Both the position numbers and the translations under genes were made by a program. The notes beneath the pieces are model-generated. The model had not been told where the DNA came from. It was given only the letters and a program-made list of their open reading frames with translations, and searched no databases. Below, piece by piece: positions 12,779 through 51,200 of a stretch of DNA of 64,000 bases (positions are counted from its first letter, which is position 1; each line of letters opens with the position of its first letter). The stretch is from Paraspadella gotoi (Eukaryota; Animalia; Chaetognatha): contig CM119268.1 in the NCBI GenBank assembly GCA_051294375.1, positions 14,591,396 through 14,655,395 on the forward strand, given 5' to 3'.

Positions 12779-15700
12779 CTATTGGGGACGGGGAGGGTGG
12801 AAAGGGAGAAGAAAATGACAGTTTCGAAAACAAAGGAACAAAAGATAAATATAAAACTGGTATAAACGTGTAAAAAGGAAAATAGAAGAATAAAAACTTT
12901 GAATAAATCACCAATTCCCCCCCACTCTTTAAACCCGATTAAATCATTTTTCAACACACTGGGTGATTGCTCTCACTTCCCCTTTTCTCACTCGCGTATA
13001 AAATCTTTTTCGGTCGTTCGTCACTTTTTTCGGAGCCAAAGAAAACGACGAGCCGGTGAACTCGGCAAGAACGTAATTGACATTTGAGGAAGAAAAGTCG
13101 AAAAAGGGAATATTTGAAGGGAAACGTAGAAAGCAAAAGCTTCCAAATATGGAATACACGGAACATTCAATTACCATGATGAAAAAAAAATTGCCGCGGT
13201 TACTTTCCAGCTATTTTTCGGCATTTTAATGTAAGAATCAAAAAATAAAATTTAAATATGGAAAAACTTTGGCGTCTTGCATGAGCTGTGTCTCATTTAT
13301 GTACGACAAAAAATACAAGAGTTCCATGCAAAAAAAAAGAGCCTATCCAAAAAAATGCTTTTTTTAAATCTTTTTTATATTTATACTTTTTATATTATAC
13401 CAATTTCCGATTTTTTTTATTAATTTATAAATTAAACCATTATAATTGCCTTTTCTCATGTCAAATGGTTATTGCATCATCTTCATTAAAATAAATTCAG
13501 TATCCTAATTCATATATAAAAAAAAGCGGCATTAAAAATATATTTATGCTGCAGATGCTCCACAATATTCTTTTTATATTATTAAGTATCAATTAAAGTT
13601 ATAAAGCTCCGGGTAATGTTTCTGTGAGAAAAGTTATCATTTTTATTTACAGAACCAAGTATTAAACAAATAAAAAACAATAAATCAAAAGATTTTGTAG
13701 AAGTTAATTTTTTTTTTTCCATCGTGGTATATTCTCAGCAGTTTGGGAAGGGATCTCGAAATTAAACTGGGTAGCTAATAATCTGTAAAATGTGAGATGT
13801 TTCTTGATGTGATATATCAGCTAACCCTGGGGGGAATTACGCTCGGCGAAGCAATCTACTGAGTGGAGGGAGAGAAGGAGTACATAGAAAAAAAATAACA
13901 TTTTTGACATTAGTGGGAACGAAAGTTGTTCCGTTTCTCGGAAAGCCATCGAAAAAAAAACCCCTACCCCTACCCCAACCCCTACTATTGTAATAATAAT
14001 AGTAACTTTGAGCCGCGTCCATTAACCGCGGGATTCGCATCGAAGTTTTCCGCTCGAGCGACCAAAACAAACTTCGGCTCTAATGAGTCCGAAAATCCCG
14101 ACGAATGGCGAACTCGACCCCAACCACACCCGCCCACTAACGCAGTCGCCCCCGCCAACGCACCCGCGACAATAAAAAAAAAATCTATGCAACAGATGGC
14201 GACCGTTGATGTAAAACTCCACGAATCCCTTTTTAGATGAAAATCCAACAGATGCAGTTTTCGCAGCGTCCGACACCGCTGCGGCGCAGCCGAATTCGAT
14301 ATCCTTTTAATCACACCACAATCCTATCACATTGCGAACCCCTTTCACAGCACAGCGAATTTAACAGCAAAAAGTGAAGCCGGAGGCAAGTCATTTGCCT
14401 ACCAATCCAAAGGATCGTGGCTCTAGCCCTGTCCGCCTAGCAGTCAAGTTGGACGGTGCGCTTAACCCACCTGCAGCAGAGAGTTTACGGACTAAGCTAA
14501 GGGACTGAAATATTTTAAACGGTTAATGCATTAATACATGACCTTTAATCTGTCTCTTCTATCACCTATTATCAAATGAATGATAACAAGCAATTAAAGA
14601 CGAAAAAGTGAAAAAAAAAGTACAATTTATATTCGTTTTTGCTTTACTCTTTCACAAACAACTCACATCCCCATCGCCCCTCATCCCCCGCTACTTTTTC
14701 AGTCAATTTCGTCGTCTAGATCGACAAATCACATTTGGCCGTGGATTCTGAATTCGAGCGTGGCTTGCGTTGTAACCAAAAACGGAAAACAACGACATTG
14801 ACCTTGCAACCAAATAGATTTGATGACGTTGCAACGAAAAAGCTTCGATATTGCATGAAAATATACCATACACAATTAGCGGAATCTGTTATCAAGGAAC
14901 CAAATCGTCATCATCTCAGACGGTTTGGGAGCTCAAATGATTTGAACAAAGACGACGACGACGAATACAACGACGAAGACGACGGTCAACATATTTGTAG
15001 CCCAATCAAATGGAAAGTTTCAAGCTAACTGTGGTGTCAAATTCGAATTTAAAACCTGGCCCATCACAGCGAAAAAGTAAATTGATAGCGAAGTTTTACT
15101 TATATATGAAACTAGCTCATCGTCATAGCAACAGGCGTGGCAAAATAGAAACGCGAGTCGCAACCAATGAGGAAGTCGGCAGCCATTCGGGTGATGGAAA
15201 TTTTCCGGGTAGGGGGGGGGGAGTAAAAACTCAATTAAGTCCGGATACTTTTTTATGGCTTTTTCGGATATGTTCGTAACGTCAAAAATCGTTGGAAACG
15301 TTCTCTTTTTTTTTTCTCTCTTAGAAAAAAATTGACCGCAAATGGAGAGATGTTTTTTGTTTATTTATATATCTTTGTTATGGTTAGCATTGAGTCGATT
15401 CAAGGAGGCGCGTCTTTTATTAAAAAGTTTAAAAGTTTTAACGACGTTTTCACTCTTCACGATGATCTTATCGTCAATCGGCTTCTCTAAACGGCAATTA
15501 GCCGTTTCCAGTCCTCGACAAAGACAATTAGCATTTTATCTCTCTGAGAGTTCTTTCATCATTTGCCCTCGAGTTTTCTTATTCCTTTCTGACGCAATTA
15601 GGTTTCTTTTTTTATTTTTTCAACGAAGAAAAAAAAAACGAATTCAATGACTTTCTTTGCACATCTTTTCGGCTCATCACTCATCAGCACCCGAAGAACA

Positions 15701-26569: not shown

Positions 26570-29500
26570 CGCCAACGCAGTTAACGTCTGTCTCTCTCTA
26601 AGCCTCGTCTTTCGCTTCTACGTTGCTCCCATCAAAAACCCAAAAAGCCTCTTTATAAATTATAAAACAAAACACCCTACATTAAAAACAACACAGAGAA
26701 AACTATTTATATATATTTTTTCATTTGCATATATAAGGAAAAAAAAAAAAAAACTTTGTTACGTTATATAAAAATACGAAAAACGAAACTGCGCCGAAAT
26801 AATTTAAAATACAGAACCCCAGTCTGAATGTAAATTAAAAGAATAAAAACTTGATATTCGCGCTTCTTTTAATCACCATCTGTAGTTAAAGCAAAATCAT
26901 CTGAAGTCATCTCTCTCCAGTAATGATCCACCATCTGTCGGATCTCGCCACAATTTTTCGATCATAAACACTCGCTCTCTGGCTTTTATTTATTTTTTCG
27001 CCATGAGCGCGGTTCCGACGCCGACAGCGTCAAACCTCAAGGTCGTTTCGGGTCACGTGACGCCGTCGCAAGTAGAGACGTTTCTGCGTCAAAATCCAGA
27101 CTTTTTAGCGAGATTCGTCGTCGCTAACGTCGACGGCGACGAGATCGAGTCATGGGGAACGATCGTGCACGAGGCCGAAGCGCGGCGTCGACGGTCTCGG
27201 CAACAGCTCCAGCAACAAAAACAGTCGTCCAATCAACAGCAACAGCCGAACCAGACACAGCAGCGACAATTGTCTCCCATTCCGCAGCAGCGGGAATCCC
27301 CGCCGCCGCCTCGGTCGCCGCTTCAACAGCGATTGGCGGAGCGGGAGGAGAAGAAAAAGTCGTGGGCCAAAAGGTCGTACCTTTCGGTTCAAGAGGATCG
27401 TCGAATGTCGTCCTCCAACGACTCCAAGACCGACGAGGACGACGACGACAAGGAGGCGGAGGATGGGACGATGACTCCGGGGAGGAGGAGGAGGAACTCA
27501 TCCTTCATCAGTCCTTACACCAGAGGTGAGTGACGGATCATCGAAAAAGTAAGATAAAGTTAAAGGAGAATTGTGGGACAGTTAAGACACGATGAGTATT
27601 AGTGAAGAAAAGAGCGAGATTGTACCAAGATTAGACAATTGGGAAGAAAAAACCAGAGTCTCTATTCATCCTTCAACTTCGCCAAAGAACGTGACGGACG
27701 AAGAGAACAGTTAACAGGTGGCAGAAAACTAAATGGCTTTGAAAATTGGTCCTGGGCGAAAAGCGAGAGAGAAGAGACCATGGATGAGATTTTTTTTTTC
27801 CTACCCTCCCTCTCTCTCTCTTTATCTCTCCCTCTCCATTGCCGAGAGAAGAGTTTTGAATTTCAAATCGGCCGGGAAATTCGTAACCGCGACGGAAATG
27901 GTAATTTGACGAAACGGTTAATGAGTAAAATTTTTAAATCGGTAAAGTCGTCACGGCCACTCGGAGGGCCGTCATAACCTGCTCTATGATTATAGTTAAG
28001 ATATATTACTAAGAGATTAATATTAGTGTCAATAATTGATAACTGCAAACATTCAAAACACCCTGGAAAATCAACTTCGTTCGAAAGACCAGAAATTCCA
28101 AGATGGAGTAACTTTGTAGCCAACTTCTCTTCCGCACGAGCGACTTTTCTTCCTCAGACACTCCCACCGAATTTAGGAGGATTTTCCATTCCCAAAGAAG
28201 AAGCTGACGTCGCGTTCGCCTAACTTGTGTCTCTCTCAGTCTCAATCTCTAAGCCCTTTCTTTCATTCGTTCTCTCTCTCTCTTTCCCTTTTTATTGTCC
28301 ATTCCAATCTGAAATCCCTAATTATCATATTCTCCCTTCTCGTCTCCATTCCGCTCTCCCCCCCCCCCGTCTTTCTCTCTCTCCCGCAGGCTTGGCTCCC
28401 GATTCTGACCCCGAATCCGCCACCGGCCGGTCCAGCTGGGACTGGGACAGTTGGGAAGAGGCCATTTCTCGACCCAATTCCGTCACGTCCGACATGTACA
28501 ACAAGTATTTGGTGAAGAATAAGAGCGCGCTGTCATCGGCCAGGCGATCTCTCAATGATCTCAACTCGGAGAGAAGTGAGTGAAAGGGGATGGGCGGTTC
28601 ACGTTGATGGTTTAGTGACGTTTGGCGCATCCGTGATTGATTGCCCTCGTTTGGTTTACCATTTGTTAATTTTTTTTTTGGGTTGTTATTGCTGTTGTAA
28701 TTGCCCAACTTTTACAGTATTGTAGATATTATTTCATTTGTTATTTTATGGAAACAGTAAACAGTAAAATGCCTTTTGAGCGAGCAAGAAAGAGGCTGCG
28801 CCTTGTAAACATATTCGAACGGCCTCGGGGCAAAACTTTCTCCCTGCCACCAGTTTTTATCGTTTCTTTTTTTCTTTTTGGCGGGGGGGAGAAGCGTTTT
28901 GCGGGGAGCGCGCTGCATATTTTACCGTAATCCCATAAAAGCCGATGGATTTCGAGAGTCGTTTTTCTTAAAAACTCAAAAACCTATGGCAAGGTTTTTT
29001 TTCCTTATTTTAATACCATTTTGGATACTAGATTTCCTCAAAATAATCCCAATTCTACTTTTAAACCCAGATAAAGAGATTTCCTTTGTTTACGCTTTGT
29101 TGAAAACAAAATTATAAAAGATGAAGGGACTAATCGCAATTCGATTAAAAAAAGAATTTTTAAAGTTAGTGGAAAGTTAAACGGTAAAATATACATAATT
29201 TTTGACCGTTTTTTACGTCTAAATAACGTCACTAAATATTGCAAAACAAAATATATCTTTTAGCGCAATATCGTGTACGTAATTTTACACAGAGAATAAC
29301 TCCAACGCGATTTTGATGGGATTGATTCGTGATATCGCCAACGAATTAGATGTCACCGCCCTGTGCCACAAAATCTTAATCAACGTTTGCGCGCTCACCG
29401 ACTCGGACAGGAGTTCAGTATTCTTAGTCAGGGGCCCTAGGTAAGTTAACTTACTCGATGTATGATAAAATGATAAAATATCATCAATCAAAACCTTAAC

Positions 29501-32500
29501 GTGCCTTCAAACCCAACTTTCCTCCATTAGGACCAACCCTTACCTCGTCTCCAAACTGTTTGATGTAACTAAAGATTCCACCCTGAAAGAATCCGTTTGT
29601 CCGGAAGGAAAGGAAATAATCATTCCGTTTGGAAAGGGAGTTATGGGGCTGGTGAGTAACGGCCATCGTTTTTCACTTTTTTTCCTTCCTTCTCATTTTC
29701 TTTCACCGATTAATGATTTCTCAGGTGGCTAAGAATAAGGAAACCATTAACATAAAGAATGCTTACTCCGACTCCAGATTCAACGAAGACATCGACCACT
29801 TGACGGGTTAGTTTGATTCTAAAAAAATTATAATGCAATGTGGACAAACAACTACAACACGCAACCTCGGTCAGACCATTGACCTTATTTTCAACCTTAC
29901 CTTTTACTCTTTCTCGTTGTGGTCAGACTTTGACCTTGTAAATAGCATTGTTATAGACTTAGCATCTGAGTCTTTTATTGTTATCGTTATTAACCTTGTT
30001 GAAAAATAAATTCATTCTTACTGTGAAACTTGTTGTGTCCACACGTGGGAGTATAGGGTAAGGTTGAAAATAAGGTCAATGGTTTGACCAAGGTTGCGTG
30101 TTGTAGTTGTTTGTCCACAGCAATTCAATAAAATTATGACAACAAGTAGCTTTCCAAAGCTGAATGAGAAGGCGCTTTTACAGAATTTAGTAACAAGCGA
30201 TTAGCCAAATAATTACGACAAATTTGTGACGTGAACAAGAAATCCAATGTGCTTTGCGTTTAAGAAAAGCCAAAATGCTTAACTTTTTAGACGAAAGAAG
30301 CAGAACGTCTTTCTCGAAAAAAAAAAAATCCTGTGTTGGGAAAGGCGCGCACTGGAAGCTGGATATGCGCCATTTTTTTTCTTTCAAGCGCTATAATGTC
30401 AGTCGCCTCTTCCCCGCTTATCTTCCACCACCCTACCCTGCCGCCCACAGGATACAAAAACCCAAAACCTCCTTCCATGCCAATTTGTAATTCGTCAGGC
30501 GAGGTTCTCGGCGTCGCGACGATCATAAATAAAGGAGTCCGTTAATTCGATTCGCTATTAATATTTTTTAATTTATACTGAATGTATAGAAAGGTTATAT
30601 ATATTGAAGAGACAGTAATTATTGATAAGTGTTAATGACAGAACGTTCAATATAAGCAGTCCCTGAGCTTCGGATCAGGCTGTAACACCTTGTTACATGG
30701 CGGTTAAGCGCCCCGTCCCTCTTAACTGCCAGACGACCACCGGGCTAGAACCCCGGACCTTTGGTTGGGAGGCGAATGACTTGCCTCCGGCACCATGGCC
30801 GCTGATGAACGGTTGTGGATTTAGTCCACCATACATCCCCCCTCCCGTAGGAGAAGTCTGTTGCGTCTCTTCAGTGAATTGTTATTGTTGGTGGAAAGTT
30901 CGTCACCAAGTGAGCATGTCGCCTGATGTGTTGTGGGCGGAAAGTGCATCGCCAGGTTGAGCATGTCGCCTGAAAGTGTTGTTGTTGCTGTTGTGTTCGG
31001 GAAGTCGGGCTCACCAATGAAGAGACAGTAATTATTGATAAGTGTTAATGACAGAAACACGTTCAATATAAGCAGTCCCTGAGCTTCGGATCAGGCTGTA
31101 CACCTTGTTACAGGCGGGTAAGCGCCCCGTCCCTCTTAACTGCCAGACGACCACCGGGCTAGAAACCCGGACCTTTGGGTTGGAGGCGAATGACTTGCCT
31201 CCGGCACCAATGGCGCTGATGAACGGTTGGTGGATTTTAGTCCACCATAATATTATATATTCATTTTATTCGGTGACCACGCTTATTCCCCGTGATTCAT
31301 TTTAAAACTATCAAATCGCTCGTAAAAATATAAATGTATAGCTGACTAAGCCCAACTTGGAATTTCCTCCTTTGAAAATGGACCAACTCGAAGCTTAAAA
31401 AAAAGCGGAGGGTCTTAAAACCAAAACTTAAAGCTAATCTGTATCTTTTCTCACGACCTCGTATTTTTTATTAAGTGTCTCTATGTTAATTTTTGAACGC
31501 TTTACGCGCATTTTAGATAGGTAACTATATTATTGATACATATAAATTAATAGGGTATGTATTATTAATTAAAAGCCATCAATGATCAGGAGGAAAAGTG
31601 GACTTTTTCCCGGAAGACGAGGCGTCTCTTCCAAGACTACTTGGCCTTTGCCGGAATCGGGTTGATGAACGCTCAACTTTCGAAATGTCCATCTTGGAAA
31701 ACAAGAGGAGCAAGATTCTTTTGAACATGGCGAGGTGGGTGCCCCCCCCCCAGTTGTGGCGCGGTTGAATGGTAGTAAGGTTGTGAGGAACGTAAACGTG
31801 TTCAATTGTTTATATTAGGGTATGGATTAATTAAGGTTATTTTGTGAGGCGTCGCAAGAAACATAAATATACAATTATACATATATACACGTATCAAGGT
31901 TTTTCAATCAACTAGTGAATGCTTAGGTGGGCCGGGAGTGACAACCTCAAAAGGAGGTGGAAGCAGCGGGGGCGCGCCTCATTGTCAACTTAGATTGACG
32001 GGCCCTGAGATCCGGGTGACGAACGACTTTTTATTCGCCCGGCGGCGTCTTTCGCCGACGGAACTAAATCTAATTAAATTGATTATTAGCAAATATATTA
32101 GTTGGGGGGGAAAGACAAATTAGAAGTTTCTCGACGTTAATCAATTTGAGCGGTTGATGGACGGGTGATATAAACGAGGAAAAAATAAACGTTAGAGCGA
32201 AGATAAAACTTTTAAGAAAAAAAATGCGACGCATCTGTTTTGACGCCGCGAGTCATTTAATTGTTCGTAAAAGTTAATAAAATATTTGATTAATATTGAA
32301 ACGATCAGGAAAATCTCGGAATCTACGACCGATTTGGACGAACTGATTCAATGCGTGATGAGAGAATTCGTTGAACTCCTCAAGAGTCAAAGATGCGCCG
32401 TCTTCTTGACGGAAGAGACACCGTGCGGGATAAGATTGGCCAAAACATTTTCTCTGGTCACAACAAAGGTGAGTTCGCAAGGGAATCCGGCTGCGAGGCT

Positions 32501-35500
32501 TTGATTAAGAAGTTTAAGGGACCTCTTAAAAATAGCTGGCCTTGATTTAAAGAGAGTAACCCCCATCAAAAAAAGATCGTTTTTTCTTGTTTGCGGTAGG
32601 CAATCGGGTCAATATGGACGAATTGATGGATGAGAAATGAAAAGGATGACCTTATTTCTTATTCTCTTCCGATGCGATGTTTGTTTTTTATTTTTTTATT
32701 TATTTATTCACTTTGACGAAAGCATAACTTGATAGAGGGAAAGCGGAAAGAAACAGCAAAAAGATTTTCATATGGTTGAAGGGGAAGAGAGACTGGGAAA
32801 GAGGGTAAGAGAGATCCAACAGATCCGACCTTATCCAAAAGAAGTTGCAAAAAAAAAAAGGCAATGTTGCAAACAAACATCGTGCCCGATCTTCTCTCAC
32901 GTTTTTTTCATTCCAATAATAACGTTTCTGATAAACAAGATTTTCTCTCTCTGATTTTTATTATATTTTTATTACATTTTCGTTTCTTTCCCCAAGGACG
33001 GAATGATAACTCAGGCCGAATCAAAGGAGCGAAAAATTAGCGACGGAACCGAAGAAATTCCGGTTTACCGGACGATGGCGGAAAGGGTGGCCATCCACGT
33101 CGCCAAAACAGGTGCCAGAAAGTTGAAATTGCGAAGGTGAATGGAGGCGTGAATTACACCCATCCTTTGTGCTTGAAAAATAATATTAACTGCTCGTTTC
33201 TTGAGGGGGCGTTTTGAACGGAAAACAAACTGTCCATGAAAAAAAAAACGAACTGCTTGCTTCAAAATGTTTATCCTCCACCTTTGTCGAACTCTGTCTT
33301 TATTTCCTAATGCACGTGGCTGTCCTGGTTCTTCGACAGACTGCTCGCCGAAATTTCCTGCTTGGGTGTTTCTTGAAAAAAAAAATGTTGGAAAACAAAG
33401 TACAAAGAAATACTTTGCTTACAGTATAAATTACTAAAGCCTCTTTTCGCTCAACTAACAGAAAAGTGGACCGAAGGCAATTTACATGTCGATCGAAACC
33501 ATTGTTCGAAATTCCAAAATCAATAAGACTGACCCAAAATGCGCCCTTTATTCTCTTTAAAAACACTGCAAATCCCTCCGATGATCTTCAGTGCAGAAGA
33601 AGAAATCAACTGTTCCCTTTTTCTCTCTCTTTTTTTTTTTGTTTCGAACAAAGTTGGAGAAAGAGGTAATAAGGATTCTGCTTCGAAATGAGATTAAGAA
33701 AAAAAGAAAATGATAAGGAGCTTTCAACAGAAAGAGATGGGTATAGCGAGTGTGGGGTGAGTGAATGTGGCCGAGGAGAGAATGAATGTGGCCGAGGAGG
33801 AAATGAATGTGGCGAGGAGAAAATGAATGTGGCCGAGAGAGAATGAATGTGGCCGAGGAGAGAATGAATGTGGCCGAGGAGGAATGAATGTGGCCGAGGA
33901 GAGAATAAATGTGGCCGAGGAGAGAATGAATGTGGCCGAGGAGAGAATGAATGTGGCCGAGGAAATCGAAAAGTTAATCAGAAAAGGAAAACATTTTTTT
34001 CTATTTTCAGTTTTTTTTTCTTTTTTCTTTCCTCACTCTGTTTGTCACTGGTTTCCAGCCAGAGTGTCTTTATTAACTTCTCTCTCTCTCCCTCTCTCTC
34101 CCTCTCTCTTTCCCTCATCTCCTTTGTTTCCGACTCGCGCCCATTTCTCTTTTGCCTTCAGAAAAAATAAAAGTAGATTGCAACGGGGATGTATTATTAA
34201 AAGTGACAGCTTCATCTCTTTCATCACTCCTTTTTTTATCTCACCCTCTCCCTCTCCCCCTTTTCAACAAAAAAAGGTGAGGTTCTGAACATCGCAAACG
34301 TTTTCTCCGCCGGAAGCGAAAAGTGTTTTCAACTGCAACAAATGACGACGAACGGAGCCGAGGAGGAGGAAGAGAAAGGGGAGGGGATGAGAGGAAAGAC
34401 CACGTCGACGAGCCTTTCCGCTCTTTCTGGAGAGCAAGGCGTTCCGGAGTTGACGGACGAAGGCGTGGAACCGATCACGTCAATCCTCTGCGTGCCGATC
34501 TTTAACTCGGCCGACAAGGTGTGGGGAGATGCGTAGAAGCGTCGAATAATCGAGTTTCCTGCGAATCAGAATGTGCGAGAGACAGAAAACTCGGAACTGC
34601 TTCAGTATCGTCCTTTGTTTTCTTTCCAGGTCATAGGCGTCGCTCAAGTCGCCAACAAAAAGAACAAACGCGCCTTCAATTCGAGTGACATCAAAGCCTT
34701 CGAGGCTTTTGCGCTCTTCTGCGGCCTGGGAATTCATAACGCGATGTTGTACGACAAAGTGTTGAAGCTTAATCTGAGGTGAAAATAACGCACATAATAC
34801 GCATATTACATATATAATACACATGATACAACAAAATGTTTGTGTCTTGAAAAGGCATGAAATTCAAGGTCAACATTAAAAAAATATTGAAATTGTATCA
34901 AGCGAATAATTTCGGCATCATTACGAATAATTTAAACGTATTTTCTCACACATTTCTCGATTACCAGGCAAGAGGTGGCATTGGAGGTTCTCTCCTACCA
35001 TACGACGGCGACGGAAGATGAAACAAAAGCCCTCCTCAACGCCATCTGCGACGTCAACGAGAACAAGCGTCTCTCGGACGCGTCCGAGGTCGCCATGGCG
35101 ACCGCTCCTTCCCTCGACTTTCTCGTCGACTTTCAATTCTCCGACTTCGAGCTCACCGACGCCGAGACGGTCAAACTCGCCATGATGATGTTCAAGGATT
35201 TCAAGTTGGACGCCAAATTCAAGATGACCGACCGACTCCTCGCTCACTGGATGCTCAGCGTGAAGAAGAACTATCGACCCGTGACTTACCATAACTGGCG
35301 TCACGCTTTCAACGTGGCACAGACGATGTTCGTCATCATGAAGAAGGGTGAGTGCGAGGGTTGGACGAGAATTTCTCTCTAAAAATGTCGTCAAGTGTCG
35401 GTATATTTTATAAAAAAAACTTTTATCGAGTTGATTTTTTCGATGTCCCCTGTTCGAAATTGGATCGTCTTTCATGCATTTAACGATAAAACCTTTCCTT

Positions 35501-37607
35501 AGATTGAATCTTTTATGTTGATCTTATTTTTGAGGAAGAGGCATTATCGAACGTCCTTGACGCCCTCTCTTTTTTATTACTTTCAAATCGCTTTGCGCTT
35601 CCGATCTCCATTTTTTTCTATCCCTCTCAGTTGTTTTTTTTTTAATATTTTTTCTATACATGTCTAACAGTTTGAAAATAACTTACCTGTCAAACCGTTT
35701 TAAATTCGAAAAAGATATTCTTAACAAAATTAAATAGTTAGAATAAACTTTAAAAAAATTGCATCGCTATGTACCTGAGCTCCTCAGTCTTTACGACCTC
35801 TTTAATACTTTATACATAGCCTTTCCTGAATGAGCAACATTATCTTATCTCTATCGTCAATCCACGACACAGAATAGCCATTTTCCCTAGGCGACAACGA
35901 CGCCATTCCAAAAAATAAATCACCCACTATAGAAAAAAAATATTCCCGCACACTCCTTTTGTTTTGTTTCTTTTTTTTCTCTCTAACTTATCGGCGTCAT
36001 TATTCATCCTCTATCTCTCCGGTTATGTTGCGATTTGCTAATTTTGTAGTAATAAACAAAAACAACAAAATTCATCGCAATGGTCATAAGTCATCGCGTG
36101 TATTTTAAATAAATACCCCCCTCCCGACATTTTAATGTCAATTTTACAGAAAGAATTCGACGAGCCTTCGATGACTTGGAAGTTTTCCTCTTTCTCGTCG
36201 CCTGCTTGTGTCACGACCTTGATCACCGAGGGCAGACGAACTCATTTCAACAAATGGTAAAATCTCCGTTGGCGCGGCTGTATTCGACGTCGACGTTGGA
36301 GCGGCACCACTTTAACCACGCCGTTATGATTCTCAATTCGAAGGTGAGTTCGAGTAGGTTAAAAATAAAGAAGAAAGGAAAGTTGAAACTCGTGTTAATG
36401 AAATTCTGCGAGGCCGGATATGGAATATTTTTTCCACCATGACGAATACATCTTTTCGTATTTCGTCCCTCAGGACAACAACATTTTTCACTCCCTCTCC
36501 GAGTGGGACTACAAAACGGCCATCACCCTTCTCGAGCGGCTTATCCTCGCCACAGACCTCACCCTCTTTTTCAAAAAGTGGGGCAGTTTCTGTCAGTTGC
36601 TGGATTCGTCGAGAGACGGCGCCGACATCGATTGGCGGAAGGAGCACAACAAGGGCCTGCTGAGTCGGATGCTGATGACCGCCTGCGACGTGGCGGCCAT
36701 TATGAAACCGTGGGAGATTCAACAAAAAGTGGCGCGACTTGTGGCTTCGGAATTTTTTGAACAGGTGAGGGGATTGAAAGAAAACGGGAGTGGCGCATTG
36801 GATGGAGGAAATAGGTTAATGAATACAATGGGAGGGAATTACCACGGTCCAACGAATGGCAACTTTTCAAAATAATGCGGACCCACCAGGGTGACATGGA
36901 ACGCGCCGCCTTCAACCGGAAGCCTTCGGCCCAGATGGACCGCGAACGAGAAGACGAATTACCCAAGATGCAGATCGACTTCATCGACGCCATTTGCCTC
37001 CCGCTCTACCAACGACTCGGGAACGAGTTTCAGGAGCTACGACCCATGCAGGAGGGTTGTCTGCGGAACCGGAACAATTGGCAGGCTTTGGATCACGTCT
37101 CCCGATCGGCGAGCAAGGATGAGGACGAGGCAGACGAGAGCAAGACTGCCGAGGACAAGGCCAGCGACGAAAGCGCTTAAAACGACGCTGGAACCGTAAA
37201 CGAGGCGAGAGGGCGTAAATCGACCAAACCTCAAAAAAGCGGCGACGGATATTAAAGGGGGGGGAAGCAAACGAGAAAAACTTGCTAACCACCAACGGGC
37301 TATTTTTACATTCTGTGTGCATTCACTTTTTTTTTTTTTTTGAATATTGATAACTGTCGAACAAAATTATTATTATTATTATTACTATTACTACATCATC
37401 CATTTGAACTTATTTTTTCTCTCGTTCGAATAAATTAAAAAAAGAGTAAAAAAAAGAACATTTTTTTCTCTTTTTTGAAAAGTTAAGAGTTCGCACTACT
37501 CAACTCCCCTAGAGAAAATAGAAATAAAAGCGAAATTCGCTCTGACAGATTTTGACAGAAACTTTCCGGGTTTTAAGAAAATCCAAAAAAGCTGTCAAAA
37601 AAAAACG

Positions 37608-40600: not shown

Positions 40601-43600
40601 TAAATGGTCCGTAAGGTTTGCCGTGATCGGAGGGTCGTCGGGGAGTTACGGGATTAAAGGGTCGATAAGGTCCAAAAGAGGTCGGGGGCCGAATGGGCGG
40701 GCGAAAGGGGCCGAGCGGGTTAAAGTTGGGATCACGAGACGTATTGGGATCAGAATCGGGTATCAGGGGCAGAGAAAATCGGGGACGGGGATCGGGGAAA
40801 CGTCGTGATCCAGAGCGACGGGGATTCCCAGCGGATGAACCGTCGGGTAAGGCGTCGGGAGAGACGGCGTGGCGGTCGTCGGGTAAGGCATTGCGATCGA
40901 GCACGCCGGTGGGAGGAAAGAAAGAATTAGAGGGTGAGGCGCAGGAAAGGAGACAAATCATGGGCAGGAGAGCGCCGCCAGGTGGAGGCGGCGGCGCCGG
41001 GACGCACGCCGGTGATCGCGATCCAGGAGGGCAGGGCACTGGACCGAACGGCGAGGGGCATGCCCAGGGAGGCGCCCCTGCCATGCAAGGCGGCGGTGGA
41101 GGCGCCAGAGGACAGAATCGTTGGCACGACATTGTTAAAAATTTTAAAAAATAGGCAATGGGTGCGGATAATGTTACTTTACTACATGATAGAAAAATAT
41201 AAAAGGTTTGAAGTTTAAAATTTTCAGAAAATTTGAAAAAAAAAAAACCCCCACCGACGAATATTTTATCACGAGTCGGAAAAAAAAATTAATTTTTTTT
41301 TTTGCTTTCTAAGTCCGCGAAAGATTTTCTGCCCAGAATTTCGGCGTTTCCCTTAAACCCGACGAAAGCTTTAGTTTTATATATTTTTTTTTAAACGAAA
41401 ACAATTTTTTCCCATTTTTTTTTTCAAAAAAAAAACAAAACTTCGTTTCGTTTATAAGTCGTCGATACCGTGTTTGTCAAAAAAAAGTAACTAAAAAACA
41501 AAGTTGGAACAAGATGCTATGTATTCGAATTGGTTGGTTAGAAAACAAAGCACAGAGTTGGAACAAAACGCAGTCTACGAACTAATTTTGTTGTTGTTGT
41601 TGTTGTTGTTGTCAAAAGTCATGTGAGCAATGTTGGCAAAAAAATTACTATTTAAAAGGTTTAGCTATGATGTTTATCATTCCCAATGCCGTAACATTTT
41701 GATTAAATGTGCGAGATTATTCGAGTTGTACTTTGGTGAAAGTTAGACGATAAAATCTTAGAGCGAATTGGTTAAAATTGTTTTGCCCCCCTTATGTCAT
41801 AACTAAAAGTAAAACCGTTTCTTCCTTTCATGCTGCTTTAACACACACTCTCTCTCTCCCTCTCTCTTTAACTCTCAACATCTGCTCCACGTCAAAACAA
41901 GGAAAGTACAGATGAGTGAAGTCACTGAACGGTTGAACGGGATGACGAATGACGCCGCCAAACAACTGACTGTACATAAATGACGAAACTTAACAGGTGA
42001 ACAGTAAGTTACAGCTGTAACTGTAACTCCACACATGCCTAACAGCCTCCAAAATTAACAATCCCTACTAAGGGAAAATTGGATTGATAACCTTAACGCC
42101 AGAACTGAGCGCGGTAAAGATTTAGGCCCTAAATTCTCACCAACTCACTGATAAGGTCGGAATTTTTCTTTCTTTTTTTTTCTTTTTAATAAGAAACAAA
42201 CTTTTTTCAACTCCCAGGAAACTGAAGAAGTGTGAGAGTGGAAGGGGCAATCCGAGTTTAGAAAAGGAACATAACAAGAATATAATAAATAGATGTTCTT
42301 ATTTTAATAACCAAAATTTATTCTTCGTATACTATTTCAATAATTTTTAAACGTCTACCAACGTACTTAACCACTGTACTGTGGATAAAAATATTTACTA
42401 TGTGCGACTGAGCAAAACATTTTTTTCCCACTTGAGGTTAGAAATTAGTCCAGTTTTTAAGCTGAAACTGAATTGCTTTAGTGTATCATGAAGCCATTTC
42501 AGTTTGTTGTTAATTTTTATTATAATTATCATTACTATTATTGTTGTTATAAACACTATTTATAAAATGAATTTAACTATAAGTCGAACTCGACGTGAGG
42601 AAGCTCGGACAATTACCCTATAAATCTCACACTTACATATTCGATCGGACACTGCGGACAGCACGCACCCGCCGACCAAACTGGCCGCGGACACGGGACG
42701 GGCTCGCACTGTACCCTTTCGCACAGCACGTAGCCCCGCCTACACTTGCACACAGCGCAAGTCTCCTCAAAGAAGATCTCCTCGCCGTCTTCCAAGATCG
42801 AGTCGCCGTCTAGCGGACAGTTGTGATCGGCGCTTCGATCCCGTTGTTCTTTTGTCTTTTTTTTTTTTTTAATCGATTTTTTAAAAAAAAGGGGGAAAAA
42901 GAGAGAGTCGAAGTGGTCATGAGAAACACGCCTCCTGGGAGGATAAGAAAAAAATACCCGGGATCTTCGACTTGAACTCGAAAAGATTTCCCCCCCCCCA
43001 CTGGGTAAAATTTTTAAAGGAAGGGGAACGAGGGAGGGGTGTTGGAGCACGGGGTTATTGTTTCGAGAAATAACAGTAATTTTTTTTTTTTTTTTAAAGA
43101 AAAAAATTGTTGTTTCTCAAATTTTAAATTACGAACATGCCTTTAAAACCTGCCGCGGGTCTGGAAAAGTTATTATAAACGTCGAGGTCTAAAATCTATA
43201 AAAATACAGAAAAAAATTTGGGAAAAACGAAAAGAAAATTTGGGTTAAGCTTATCATATACTACAAATTGGTTTTCTTTTTCGTCTCGACCAGATTTTTC
43301 TGTACACTCATTTCACCATCTAGAATGCAAAATACTTACGGCCTTGCAAGGACAAGACCGACTTTAATTGACGGACTATGTAAATGGCAACCAAAGACGT
43401 TAACGTCGGTCCTACCAACGACGTACAAAAACCGACTTACGTTGTCCGGCGCCTCCGTCACCTCGTCGATCGGGCAGACCGGACAGCACTTTCCTTCGGG
43501 AAAGATCGGGATGAGGCAGTTGGGCTGTTTGCATTGCTCCTTCTCGCAATCGATGCGACCCTGCCGACACTTGCACGTCTCGCAAACGTCGACGGAGAAC

Positions 43601-43849
43601 TCCTCTCCGTCACTGTAGTAATCTCCGCGGGCCGTCTTGCAACCACTCCCAATCTTTTGTTCGTTTTTAAATTGGTTGTATTGTTTTAATGACGGACGTA
43701 AAGAGGAGTACAGTAACAAGTTCCGTGGTGCGCAGAGCGGGGTGCGGATAAAACGGTGCGAAATTTGTACCGGTTTTTTATAGTTTTTTTTTTAAGGCGA
43801 GGTGAGGGGAAAGGGGTGATAATGTGGCGAGGCGTGTGTGCAAAGCAGA

Positions 43850-43897
<48 letters not shown>

Positions 43898-45143
43898 GAG
43901 CGTGATTCCATGATTAGCGGCGAGGGATAGTGGGCGCCCCAAGGCGCAAAAAGGGGGAAGAGTAAACGAAATTTTCGAATAAGCAACAATGAAGACTCAT
44001 TGTACTCAAAATCGATGCCATATTCAAAAGCGAGGCGGGGGAAGTCCGATAATTTCTAGAATATTTATTTTACCCAGTAAAATGTGCGAAATCTTTCGAA
44101 GTTCTAAAATAAAAACGACCAGATGGCAAAAAAAAAGAAATAATCATGCGGCTTAGAAGTAACTTTTCTCGCTTTTGATAGCAACGCTCCATTTGAGTGA
44201 TTTCAACACGTCACAAAAAAAGCCGACGTCAAACTTCGTTACCTGACGTCCAGGCCGACGATCCCCAGGTCTCTGCCGCTGTCTCTGTCTCTCTCTCTGG
44301 CGCCGCAAAATGTCCCGGAAGGACGTCTGGGCGCCGCACCAATCCACCGCTAAAATCAACGCCAGCGCCACCAACAAGCAGCGCATTAACGAACCTCGCA
44401 TTTCTTTTTTTTGGGTTAAAAACCATACGGCGTCTCGTCACTCGATGATATGACAAAATTAAGAAGGAAAATTAATATTGTTTCCTCCGTCGCGTGCGCC
44501 ATCTTAAATTCAATTAACCTTTCTCGCTGAAAAACAAAAGATCTGAAAAATAAAATCCGTTCAAAATGAAATAAAAACACGATTTTGGAGAAAAAAAGAA
44601 AAAAAAAAAANNNNNNNNNNNNNNNNNNNNNNNNNNNNNNNNNNNNNNNNNNNNNNNNNNNNNNNNNNNNNNNNNNNNNNNNNNNNNNNNNNNNNNNNNN
44701 NNNNNNNNNNNNNNNNNNNNNNNNNNNNNNNNNNNNNNNNNNNNNNNNNNNNNNNNNNNNNNNNNNNNNNNNNNNNNNNNNNNNNNNNNNNNNNNNNNNN
44801 NNNNNNNNNNNNNNNNNNNNNNNNNNNNNNNNNNNNNNNNNNTTTTTTTTTTTTTTTAAATTTTAAAAGTTTAATCAGAGTCACGAAAAATATGAAAAAA
44901 TCTAGAGCAGATTCGTTGATGAAAGATTTTTCTTTGCCGATGATGATCATCATCATCATCATTTGTTCGCCAAAGCGCCTCTCTCTCCGCCCTTCTTGAA
45001 GGCAACGTTGCTGGGCGTAGTCAGAGTCTCTCTCTCTCTCGAGCTCTCTCTCTCTTTCAAAATTCAGCGCCCACAACGATAACGACTTCGAGTAACGACG
45101 TTTGACTATCGAAGGGCAGCCCAAGCTTTTCAAATATTTACAA

Positions 45144-45205
<62 letters not shown>

Positions 45206-48200
45206 GCCATGGGAAACCGAATTGGAATATATACAACTCAGAACACCAGAATCATAGAAATGAAAAAGAATCAACTCGATTTCTAACTCAGTCGATGTGA
45301 TTTTTTTTTTCTTCATCAGAATTCGGACGGATTGATAGAAAGATGGATTTACGAATAACAACTTTCCGAGGTTCTCGCGAGATAAAAAAATCCACTTGGT
45401 GATGAAGTTGAACGAATAAACCAAAGGAGATCGCACGCAAACGAATTTAAAAGTTTAATCAGAGTCACGAAAAAATATGAAAAAATCTAGAGCAGATTCG
45501 TTGATGAAAGATTTTTCTTTGCCGATGATGATCATCATCATCATCATTTGTTCGCCAAAGCGCCTTTCTCTCGCCCTTCTTGAAGCAACGTTGCTGGGCG
45601 TAGTCAGAGTCTCTCTCTCTCCTCGACCTCTCTTCGCTCTCTCTCTCTTTTCAAAATTTCAGCGCCACAACGATAAACGACTTCGAGTAACCGACGTTGA
45701 CTATCGAAGGGCAGCCCAAGCTTTTCAAAATTTACAATATCTCTCTCTCTCTTCTCTCTCTCTCTCTCCTCTCTCTTTCTCTCTCTCTCTCTAGCCATGG
45801 GAAACCGAATTGATAATATACAACTCAGAACACCAGAATCATAGAATGAAAAAGAATCAACTCGATTTCTAACTCAGTCGATGTGATTTTTTTTTTCTTC
45901 ATCAGAATTCGGACGGATTGATAGAAAGATGGATTTACGAATAACAACTTTCCGAGTTTCTCGCGAGATAAAAAAATCCACTTGGTGATGAAGTTGAACG
46001 AATAAACCAAAGGAGATCGCACGCAAACGAAGCCGGCGATGCCAAGGTCGAATATTTTCCCCGGACGTCGAAGGCCTCCATCTGGACGCCGATCGAGTCT
46101 TTCGAATCTGAGAGATTCCCACCGACGAAATGGATCGTCGAAAACGGCGCTCTTCCCCACATTTCGAACGCAATCGGGAGAGAAAACTGAGAGCCCATTA
46201 CCTTTTGGTAACTTTTACGTTCGCGCCGGAGACAGGTGTAGTTTTTTTTTTATAGATTTTTTTCTTTCTTTTTTTAAAAAAACGAGGCATAACAAATGAT
46301 AACAACAATGCCAGGAAAGGGGATATTTTTAGCATCGACAAAAAACATGCATATATATATATATATTCGGACTTTTCGCCGCAAGAATAGGAAAAAAAAA
46401 ATCGAGAATCCGGGGAAAGCAGCGGGGCCAAAGGAGAAAAAGAGTCAAAATCGCCAAGGAGGAGGAGGAAGAGGAGGATGATGATAAGAATTGTGTTTTG
46501 AAAGAGGGGGGCGTGGGGGGGGGTGTAGGAAGGCGGAAGAAGTACCCCTAGAGAAACAGAGTCAACAGAATCGAGGTAATTAAGAACGGCGATTTTCACC
46601 GAGGGGGGCGTGCGTGCTCGCAGAGGCGTGAAAGTTGGGGGAGAGGATTAAAATATGGCGGGGGCGTTGCTGAAAGTAGTGTGGTCGGAGGGCTCGCGAA
46701 ATGTGTAGTCAGGTATTGCACCGACTCGCAAAGAATATAGTGAGTTAATGGTGGGACGCTTTCAAGGCGCCGAGTGTTTCTTGAGAGCCGGGAAGCGAAG
46801 AGGGCAGGATGGAAAATTAAGTATAACTAAGTATAACTTTATACTAGAAGCTCTTGTAATCGGGTATGTCGTTTGGCAACTGTTTAATCGAAACGAGTTT
46901 TTAAATCGAAATCGAAACAGAAAATGGTCATGATCTACAGGCAATCCTATTTGTCTCATTATCCTTTAACTGGTCTCCAGTTTCTATGCAGTTTTTGACG
47001 CCATTTTCGCTTAATTTTTTCTTCCTGTCATTCTCACGTATCCCCTTCAAACGTTACGATTTCAGTGTTAATTCCAGTTGNNNNNNNNNNNNNNNNNNNN
47101 NNNNNGTAATAGTTTAAACATTGGATGGTTTCCTCTTCAGATTTGTCCTTGTCACCTTTTTCGTCTGTCATCGTTTCGTCTCCAACATCGAAGCTCTAAA
47201 AATAAACACTTCGCTGAAGTGGGCGACGGCTTCGTCCAACAGAAAACGAAACTAAAGAAGACTATGTCGCGGCCGAAAAAAAAATATTCAACCTCATATA
47301 ATGAATAAATGGATAACTTGGTATAACCAATATAACAATTATTCATTCATTTAATATTAATAAATAAGCTATCTTGTCCCTGACTATGGACAGTCTTTGT
47401 GATTTAAGGCCTCCATCACTCTTACAAGATAATGACATGGCAGTTCCCTGCAAGCTTTCAATCAAGACTCTCTCACAGTCTCGTTTATACACTCCCAGAG
47501 TACCAGGCTTCCACATCAATGAAGTGGCAAATATTATGTATATTAGCAATACCAATTTCATCAAATTCGGTTCTTTGTATTTTGATGTTAGTGCGGAGTA
47601 CAATATAGTATTCCCCGATATAATACTTAAGGGATTGGTCCTTTTAAACAATTGAAACATTCTTTGAAATATTAAACCACTTCATTGATAGAAAAGCCAG
47701 ATACTACTCAGGCAGTGAATAAATGTGACAGAGAGAGTCTTGACTGAAAGTTTGTAGGGACATGGTATATCATCTTTATAATATCTTTTAATAGAGATGG
47801 AGGCTCAAACCACCAAATTTTATTGAATAAACGGATAACTTTACGTATATAGGTAGTAGCAATTTCATAAATTTTAATATTTTTTTAAAACCTTTATAAC
47901 TAAGTATACATACCTAGTCTTAATATTAGAATAAAAAATAAAAACATAACTTTAAATAACTATTAAAGTAAAGACTACATTCATACAGAACAGCCGCGAC
48001 CAAAAAACAAAGCTTATCACAGTCTAAAAACTATTTTTTGTGACCGAATGAGCGTCGACGGGTGAAAGGGAAGGAAGCAGCGTGACGTCAGCGCTGAACT
48101 AATATTTTTTGTTTGTGTTTTTTTGCGGTTACGAGGCTCAAAAAGGTTTTTAATATTACATGTTCACATATTCATTATTCAGTTCGTGTATACCAAGCGA

Positions 48201-51200
48201 ATAAAATTTCCTCTTCTTCTGGTCATACATACTTGCCAGAGAAAACAAAGTTGGGAAACATCACAGAAAATAAACATACATTTTTCAAACAAGCTAAAGG
48301 TTTTTTTTTTAAATTAAACTCTTTTTCCATATTCTTCGGTGTAGACAATGTTTTTATTAAATACGAAGATGATAAAAGGAGGCCGAGTCTCGAAGAAGCG
48401 AGCCGCCCTCTGGAGATCAGCCAGGCACGTCTCTAGCGTCCCCTCCACCAGACCTCTGGCCTCCAAGCCACCCCTGAGGGCCACCCCGTCCACGAAAACA
48501 GGGTTAACGGCGAGAAGATAACGATGAGGACCAGGAAATAATTAAAATTCCTAAACGATACGAGCTTTCTTCTAGTCAGAAAAATACATTCGCTGTTATT
48601 CATACCAACTTAAATCATTCAAAAACAATTTCGGATCTGACGCGATAACTCTGTTTAAAAAAAAAAAAAAAAACTTTCGGATTGATTATCTGACCTATTC
48701 GTTTAGCTTTGTTAAAAATTCCACAAAAAAGGGAAAAGTTTTAAAAAAATAAATTTTTAATGATATTTAAATGTTCCAGGCCTTGTACGCTGAACACGTT
48801 TCATGGCCTGGTGATTTCTATCCTGGGATAAAAAAAGAACAGTAGGCTCAACAGAAAAAAGATATATTGGTTTCCTGATAAAAAATATACTTTCCCCAGG
48901 AGTTTTTTCCCCGAATGTTAAAAACGACGATGAAAAATACACAGGCAGTGATTTAACCAAATGAGTTTTATCACGATCTAAATCAATCATTTTTTTTTTA
49001 TCCTCATAATTTAAAAAAAAATACATTACTCGACTTTAAGTAGGGAAATGATTAGACTTCACTCCACGATAGAACAGTATCATGAGAAAACTCCGCGAAA
49101 TCGGAGAAATCGTTATCCCAACCTCTCAAATTCTAGCTCCATCTCAAATTCACAACAAGCGAGATAAAAATCCTTTTTCCACCAGGGAACTAAGATCTAG
49201 TCTTCGATTCGAAATCTTTTAAATTCTCTCTGTGATTCTTTGTCTCTCGCGAGCTCGCGTTTCTCCTCTTTCTTCTCACGCCACCAAAGGCTTTCCCCTT
49301 GACGAAAGACTCCCTCTCTCTCTTTTCTTCTCTCTCACACAAAATCCCTTTTCAGTCTTTGGGTATTGCAGAGTCGAAAGGCCGACCGATGATATCTCTC
49401 ACCCACTCGCACAAAGAGCCTCTTTATGGTTTTTCTCTTCTGAGATGGGAGAAAAGCTAGGAGAAAAAAGCAAGGAGAGAAACTAAAAGTAAAAGAAAAT
49501 CAAATCTAATAGATGCTTTATTAAATCTGAATCTTTCAAAGTGGCTCAAATTTAAATAAAGCTAGAAATGAAAAACTCAAACCTTTGTCAGAAAGAGTCA
49601 GTAAATTATTCAATATAATAATAAATTATAAACTTTGTAGGTGATTAGATGTAAAGTGATAAACATAAGTTAAAAATTAAGTGATGAAAGCTTCACGTAA
49701 ATCTTTTCTGGAGTTCGTTCGTTCGTGTTCTTTCTCTCTCTCTCTCTCTCTCTCTCTCCCCGCTCATTCGCACCTGGAACTGTTTTTGGCTTCGGAACCA
49801 AGGCCGACCCACAAGGAAAAGGAGGGTTGGTGTACTAGGGCAGTGGGGTTTTAGCCATTAAGCAAAAGATTCTCTCGCTCTCTTCAACGCTCACCTCGGC
49901 GGGTTTTGTATACTTTCGTGTAAACAGTGAACAAACAAGGAATAAACAATGAATGAACAATGAATAAACGATGAATAAACAATGGAGTCCGATATCAAGG
50001 ATCATCGTGATCCGGTCGTCGCACAAATCTTTAACGAGGCGAAAAAATTTCCCATTAACTAGACAACCAATCAATCTTTTAATATTTAGGAACATCTTTG
50101 ACAGAAAAATTCTGCCGATTTTTCTTTCAATTTAATCATTAAAAAAGCCACGGGAAAAAAAAGAAAATCAATATTTATGATTCAAATCTCCTTTTACCTC
50201 GCTGAAAGCAGAAAAGCGGGTTTTCCGTGACGACGGTTAAAAAGCTTTAAAATTCGGATCAATCCTTTTTTGAAAAAAAGGGAAAATCAAAAAGTCTCGA
50301 AAAACCGGGAAAAAGTCTAGCGATTCTCGAAGAGAAGAAGGAACCTGGCAAAAAAGAAGGAAGGAGTGGGGGAAATATGATAAGAAAAAGCGGAGATAGA
50401 AAAGCGAAAAGGAGGAAGAAATGAATAAAAAAAGTGGAAGGAAGAAACCTACAAGAACCGAAAATACCCCCCCCATCATCAAAACGGCAAGACAAAGAAA
50501 GAGCGATAGACAAAGATACTGCCCCCCCCCCTTTTCCGTTAACGGCTCATCATAAAATCGTTAAGAGTCGAAACGAGGACCCACGGGGAAGCGAACATCT
50601 ACGAAGGGAGGAGAAATGTGGTCACATTGTGGTCAAAGTCGAGGGTGGCCGTCGAAAGATCGAACGCGGGCAGTAAAAATCAAAGGGGGGGTCGGGGCAG
50701 GAGAATGGTCTGTTGTGAATGAATGAGATGAGGAATTTGATTGATCATTATCAAAAATCATGTTTTATTATCATATTATATTTAATATATTAAATATTGC
50801 TTCTGCTCCCTACAATCCCGTAGGAGAGTTAGGGACTGAAGAAAAACTAGGATCTTCGCGGCTTGACCTTTTTAGCGTGCTAGATCGGCGACGGAAAAAG
50901 GCCGTAAATGAACAAGATTTTTGACCTTTCGTCCTCTTGAGACGATTCGGGGCTAGCGGCGGAAATGGCGCTCTTGATCTCATCCTTTTCTAACCTGGTC
51001 GACCTACATAGCCTCATCACTCCCTTAAAAATGAAAGGGGCTGGTCCGCTTGGTCATTGGTCAACGTCGGACAACTTGGTAGTAAGGCGTAGTGAAAGTT
51101 GCAGATCAAAATTCGAATAGTTAATCATGAACAGTCTTGGACTAAAGAACATTGATATACAAAAATTTTTTAACATTTTTTTTAAATTTTCGCATACGCC

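Follow-up and report, generated by a model that had tools for sequence, protein, structure and literature searches.

A 645-bp element on the minus strand of the 64,000-nucleotide stretch of DNA analyzed here (the window) is, in the reading that we regard as probable, a recently inserted, repeated, and noncoding miniature LTR retrotransposon (TRIM) whose LTRs carry a segment derived from tRNA-Val. These features place it in Helenus (TRIMp3), the TRIMs with tRNA-derived sequence in the LTR (Kojima 2024, Biology 13:119, PMC10886601). As part of the same reading, Pol III likely transcribes the element, and a partner of the Gypsy type likely copies it in trans. The anatomy and an allele with an empty site are observed directly, whereas the modes of transcription and copying are proposed from the sequence.

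Anatomy of the element

The element (positions 30605 to 31249) consists of a 5′ LTR of 232 bp (31018 to 31249), a noncoding core of 184 bp (30834 to 31017), and a 3′ LTR of 229 bp (30605 to 30833), all on the minus strand. Both LTRs, delimited with BLAST, begin with TA and end with CA. The element is flanked by copies of the 4-bp target site duplication (TSD) ATAT, read from the sequence at 30601 to 30604 on the left and at 31250 to 31253 on the right. A 1-nt spacer separates the 5′ LTR from the primer-binding site (PBS) TGGTGAGCCCGAC (31004 to 31016, minus strand), which is of the tRNA-Trp type: it agrees at 12 of 13 nt with the complement of the A. mellifera tRNA-Trp given in Fig. S2 of PMC10886601, a reference that is not the host's own tRNA, and the single mismatch falls at 31010. 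At the opposite edge of the core, a polypurine tract (PPT) of 11 nt (30836 to 30846, minus strand) is followed by TG and then by the 3′ LTR.

With two LTRs within a length below the TRIM limit of 1,000 bp, a PBS after the 5′ LTR, and a PPT before the 3′ LTR, the element shows the features by which TRIMs are recognized. It also lacks coding capacity, in that the longest open reading frame (ORF) overlapping it is 97 aa and none of the four overlapping ORFs (0/4) has a Pfam match. The TRIM anatomy is confirmed. An earlier note on this DNA had described a noncoding LTR-PBS-core-PPT-LTR structure of 645 bp with a 4-bp TSD, and its coordinates hold; its match of 12 of 13 nt to a tRNA-Trp PBS is likewise borne out against the A. 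mellifera complement, and the PBS is of the Gypsy type.

By BLAST, the two LTRs are 94% identical, with 4 substitutions and 9 gap columns between them. Many of these gaps are single bases in runs, at which the contigs of other copies read differently; part of them may stem from misassembly, in which case the LTRs may be more alike than these figures show. Within the core lies an internal duplication of ∼49 nt (within 30860 to 31030), which occurs as copy-number variants in other copies. In addition, the core contains a 9-nt stretch that is complementary to the 3′ end of the LTR and predicted to fold over the LTR-PBS joint.

Family members, true ends, and recent insertion

Evidence for a family was gathered from the contigs of 7 public sequencing runs (of 11) aligned to the locus. 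Summed contig depth ranges from 2e3 to 2.6e6 in bins over 30594 to 31265, core included, compared to <200 in the flanks; this contrast is seen in 4/4 runs from 3 studies, and the depth figure is not a copy number. The core is covered by many other copies across the 7 runs. Contigs diverge into unrelated, AT-rich loose ends precisely at 31249 (three runs, with 72, 16, and 21 records), and loose ends also fall exactly at 31018 (77, 81, 23, and 54 records in four runs) and, at the inner edge of the 3′ LTR, at 30833 (5 and 11 records in two runs). Because the loose ends begin exactly at these three positions, TA...CA represents the true ends of the family, and the TA...CA termini that the earlier note had read from the letters of this locus are therefore valid at the family level. 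Contigs with several differing letters span the PBS-LTR and PPT-LTR joints; since variant contigs bridge both core-LTR joints, the core is part of the family as well.

The insertion is recent and polymorphic, as an allele with an empty site exists. A 477-nt contig from one run (X5) corresponds to 30373 to 30600 followed directly by 31250 to 31485, with no letters in between. The letters missing from this contig amount to 649 bp, i.e., the element plus one 4-bp copy of the TSD. A run from another study (X2) probably holds the same empty allele, judging from a depth value of 181.4 on both flanks. Given this polymorphic insertion, the element family is probably still moving. In the sequence from 31000 to 31017, which includes the PBS, no alternative letter reached ≥3% in 4/4 runs, and the PBS mismatch at 31010 is therefore a family trait. 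This fixed mismatch may mirror a variant of the host tRNA.

Two solo LTRs are also present in the window. The younger, of 236 bp (63375 to 63610, minus strand), has the TSD TTTA on both sides. The older, of 231 bp (14330 to 14560, plus strand), was detected as a BLAST match of 73% and proved to be a full-length LTR with ∼77% identity; it has the TSD ATCA on both sides, and its ends read CA...CT. TSD length is 4 bp at 3/3 sites in the window (ATAT, TTTA, and ATCA), so that the 4-bp TSD claimed in the earlier note is a fixed length and not a feature of one site.

tRNA origin of the LTR segment

The tRNA-like segment occupies nt 35 to 106 of the LTR. In the 3′ LTR, it is tRNA-Val-like, contains the box B GGTTCTAGCCC, and lies at 30731 to 30802 (minus strand; 25.4 bits, E 3.4e-5, in the Val-centered covariance model described below, to which the following bit scores also refer). 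The corresponding segment of the young solo LTR lies at 63503 to 63576 (minus strand; 25.7 bits, E 2.8e-5), and that of the 5′ LTR, the weakest of the three young copies, at 31145 to 31216 (minus strand; 13.6 bits, E 0.099). ARAGORN called no tRNA over the window, and the generic Rfam tRNA model gave no match to the window at E ≤10; on these grounds, the segment is a remnant and not a tRNA gene.

A gapped 20-nt motif derived from the LTR, which was chosen with tRNA-Val in mind, was scanned in public contigs. Among the matches listed, it fell inside ARAGORN tRNA genes in 12/12 viral cases and 99/115 metagenome cases (combined, 111/127). A 22-nt LTR motif gave 0 matches in metagenome contigs. 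The earlier note had likened the segment to both Val and Asn tRNAs. Among the matches listed, 64 of the 111 tRNA genes are Val and 4 are Asn; the resemblance to Val is upheld, and that to Asn is not.

The commonest Val gene among the matches listed was aligned locally to the three young LTRs, giving scores of 37 (the 5′ LTR), 41, and 44. Shuffles averaged ∼18, and for each young LTR 0/3,000 shuffles reached the observed score; the same gene scored at most 33 in 511 other tiles of the window. Gumbel-fitted p values for the three young LTRs are 5e-5, 8e-6, and 2e-6, which become 0.02, 0.004, and 0.0009 when multiplied by 500. The older solo copy scored 28, a value reached by 5/3,000 shuffles, and its fitted p fails the ×500 correction.

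Several features that lie outside the motif, or that depend on pairing, point the same way. In an ungapped register, 10/13 invariant tRNA positions outside the motif are kept (G52 was left out, as it lies in the motif), and T8, G10, G15, and G18 are kept in the segment. The acceptor-like stem pairs at 7/7 positions in two of the three young LTRs, including the 3′ LTR, and at 6/7 in the third; the probability of 7/7 pairs in two of the three by chance is ∼0.02. The D stem and the anticodon stem are broken. The 3′ LTR shares the box B form GGTTC with the young solo LTR; the 5′ LTR has GGTTTC instead, and the old solo LTR has GGCTC. A consensus fold of three LTRs contains 1 covarying pair of 58, a figure that derives from three copies only.

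A Val-centered covariance model, built from 26 of 52 distinct tRNAs among the matches listed, ranks the four LTR copies 1, 2, 3, and 6 of 13 window matches; this ranking is partly circular, since the training tRNAs were picked with the LTR motif. The earlier note had proposed that a lack of covariance-model support would count against a tRNA origin. The partly circular Val-centered model ranks the LTRs first, while the generic Rfam model misses them. The tRNA-like segment described in that note is beyond chance by motif matches, shuffles, invariant positions, and acceptor pairing. By its sequence, then, this part of the LTR descends from a Val-like tRNA and represents a promoter-like remnant rather than a working tRNA.

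Comparison with Helenus, Cassandra, and Ajax

In the available part of PMC10886601, Helenus is reported from six animal phyla, with 4-bp TSDs, Gypsy-like PBSs, and family lengths ranging from 311 to 1263, and Pol III transcription of the published families is stated to be unvalidated. The present element resembles these families in being shorter than 1 kb, in having two LTRs that each carry a nonfunctional tRNA-derived segment in the sense orientation, and in its PBS, PPT, and solo LTRs. Its 4-bp TSD is that of the animal families, its length of 645 lies within the published range, and the GGTTC in box B of its 3′ LTR and young solo LTR is shared with Helenus. Helenus-2_SyJa and Gypsy-32_NVi likewise have a PBS of the Trp type preceded by a 1-nt spacer (PMC10886601). 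Ends of the form TA...CA were considered as a novelty and rejected as such, as the LTRs of at least five wasp Helenus families start with TA (PMC10886601).

Differences from the published families concern layout and detail. In most Helenus families, the tRNA part lies in the 3′ half of the LTR and is followed by T-rich sequence (judged by eye from the available part of the source), whereas in the present element it lies near the 5′ end of the LTR and is followed by a 130-nt tail with no T run. The box A of the element, TGGTG...AGG, does not follow the typical Helenus form, TRGCY...YGG (PMC10886601), and the one fixed PBS mismatch is likewise unlike Helenus as described there. A similar layout is found in Helenus-1_MLe from the ctenophore Mnemiopsis leidyi, an element of 629 bp in total whose long LTR (266 bp) has its tRNA-like part at the 5′ end. 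However, the LTR of Helenus-1_MLe begins with TG, the start of its core is not a TGG-type PBS, and no sequence likeness to the present element is visible by eye. Four diagnostic motifs of the element matched no family in the available part of Data S1 of PMC10886601, in which line breaks can hide matches, and the four motifs were not found in the literature searched. A close relationship between the host and the bivalves, brachiopods, or insects named as Helenus hosts in the available text is unlikely, although its phylum may be among the six reported. Under the definition given in that text, the element is a new family of Helenus/TRIMp3, of a known kind and not a new class.

Cassandra and Ajax are LTR elements whose LTRs carry 5S rRNA sequence. 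According to the available part of PMC10886601, transcription by Pol III has been demonstrated for Cassandra alone, whose RNA ends inside the 3′ LTR, and Ajax has a TSD of 5 bp. Like both, the present element is noncoding and carries a small-RNA-derived internal promoter (putative here) in its LTR; unlike both, its LTR holds no 5S rRNA-derived sequence, and Rfam gave no 5S rRNA match in the window at E ≤10. The suggestion of the earlier note that this is an animal analogue of Cassandra was right as to kind but not as to novelty, as animal Helenus elements were described in 2024 (PMC10886601).

Alternative explanations

The alternative that survives best, although we judge it unlikely, is that of an ordinary Pol II-driven TRIM: the SINE head of tRNA origin would be a dead passenger in the LTR, and the promoter would lie in the AT-rich sequence toward the 3′ end of the LTR. 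The element would then still be Helenus by sequence, yet it would not be a working TRIMp3. Each of the three young LTRs has C in place of A14 in box A and, in box B, T at position 57, where tRNA has a purine, as might be expected of a dead promoter; against this, box A and box B are spaced exactly as in a tRNA, and GGTTC-A-CC is kept in 2/3 young LTRs. TATA-like and AATAA-like words can be seen by eye near nt 185 to 215 of the LTR, where a Pol II promoter would be placed, but the TATA-like word varies between copies. A passenger would also agree with the pattern of conservation: between young and old copies, 53/72 columns are kept in the tRNA-like part and 95/135 in the LTR tail, so that the former is not clearly better conserved than the latter. 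On the other hand, the tRNA segment stands in the sense orientation in every copy, and the same design recurs across many lineages in the available part of PMC10886601.

The lack of a Pol III terminator in the LTR also fits Pol II transcription. No TTTT occurs on the sense strand of the element, whereas none of 182 window tiles (0/182) is without one; because 23% of element shuffles are also without TTTT, its absence is weak evidence.

It is very improbable that the "LTR" is instead a free tRNA-derived SINE and that the 645-bp unit arose from two nearby SINE insertions or a segmental duplication. The repeat does resemble a SINE in layout, with a tRNA head, a body of 130 nt, and an AT-rich tail, but it ends in CA and has no poly(A) or simple-repeat tail, and 4-bp TSDs are found at 3/3 sites. 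Similarly, although the window holds two single copies and only one paired unit, in that unit the PBS and PPT lie exactly at the inner LTR edges, the core is common to many copies, and the empty allele is missing the unit as a whole. The earlier note had named copies without the shared core as a sign of independent SINE insertions. Other copies in fact join the core to the LTR, and the two-SINE reading is refuted by this shared core together with the empty site.

Equally improbable is a retrozyme-like element, spread via circular RNA with a self-cleaving ribozyme in a structured LTR: the predicted folds of the young LTRs surpass those of shuffles (z of −1.5 to −3.8), but the older copy folds no better than chance (z of ∼0), no Rfam ribozyme family matches at E ≤10, and no hammerhead core is present on either strand or across the circular joint. 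In the young LTRs at 30605 to 30833 and 63375 to 63610, z is −3.3 to −3.8 for the antisense strand and −1.5 to −3.1 for the sense strand. A likeness to twister or hairpin ribozymes was dropped as a candidate, as the shared words are those of the tRNA T-arm and Rfam gave no match. Weak Rfam matches to sR38 did not come near the gathering score, so they were taken as chance.

Genomic context

According to Pfam matches, laminin-alpha-type exons (minus strand) flank the element on either side, and a GAF/PDEase gene (plus strand) surrounds it, with the nearest PDE-like exons recognized by eye. The element thus appears to be intronic to both the laminin-alpha-like gene and the GAF/PDEase gene. The former (1056 to 63336, minus strand) spans the window, and two genes on the opposite strand are nested inside it: the GAF/PDEase gene (26886 to 37177, plus strand) and a mitochondrial-type cytochrome P450 gene (59496 to 61926, plus strand). 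Named PDE homologues are at most 57 to 59% identical, and named P450s are at most 56% identical. In a 36-row tree, the window exon and two relatives lie on a long branch; one relative is 81% identical, and its own identity to the named animals listed, Lingula, Ostrea, and Drosophila included, does not exceed 60%. Interspersed with the laminin exons, and on their strand, are two VWC-domain exons (42616 to 43791, minus strand), which reflect an unusual fusion of laminin with VWC or else a further nested gene.

Other repeats were also observed in the window. A MITE-like element at 29839 to 30119 has terminal inverted repeats of 71 nt (94%), with related copies near 5583 to 5716 and 60804 to 60949. 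A tandem array of ∼10 copies of a 20- to 21-nt unit (33738 to 34002) lies in a PDE intron, and long, imperfect inverted repeats that may be nested MITEs are clustered at 51105 to 52281. An assembly gap of N adjoins a 99% identical duplication of 187 nt with a spacing of 586 bp (44596 to 44857 and 45259 to 46031); this duplication is possibly an assembly artifact.

Proposed mechanism and implications

If the element is a Pol III-transcribed TRIM copied in trans, as we favor, TFIIIC would bind the 5′ LTR (nt 35 to 106) through box B and a degenerate box A, and Pol III would start near nt 35. With no terminator inside the element, the RNA would extend across the core and the 3′ LTR as far as the first run of T in the flanking DNA, which at this site lies 137 nt downstream of the element, and would thereby acquire a long terminal redundancy. 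The partner would package this RNA, and a tRNA-Trp-like primer would anneal at the PBS. Second-strand synthesis would be primed by the PPT, and integrase would insert the product at AT-rich sites with a 4-bp stagger. Recombination between LTRs would leave solo LTRs with the TSD intact. A Pfam scan of 118 ORFs in the window gave no match to a reverse transcriptase or integrase. One run (X6), guessed to be RNA, also covers the intronic flanks of the element and has no bearing on expression.

More tentatively, and with more doubt than assent, we suggest a bolder version of this reading. The element may belong to an independently born and currently active Helenus family in a phylum outside the six reported; it may be transcribed by terminator-less Pol III read-through from LTR nt 35 into host DNA and primed by a variant of the host tRNA-Trp whose acceptor stem has changed. 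If true, this would provide a live animal model of Pol III-driven LTR retrotransposition, which has so far been shown for no tRNA-type TRIM.

In all, the element adds a young, abundant, and apparently independent animal family to Helenus/TRIMp3 and supports the repeated capture of tRNA promoters by miniature LTR elements. With its polymorphic insertion, the organism is suited to testing both the Pol III transcription of Helenus and the identity of its copying partner.
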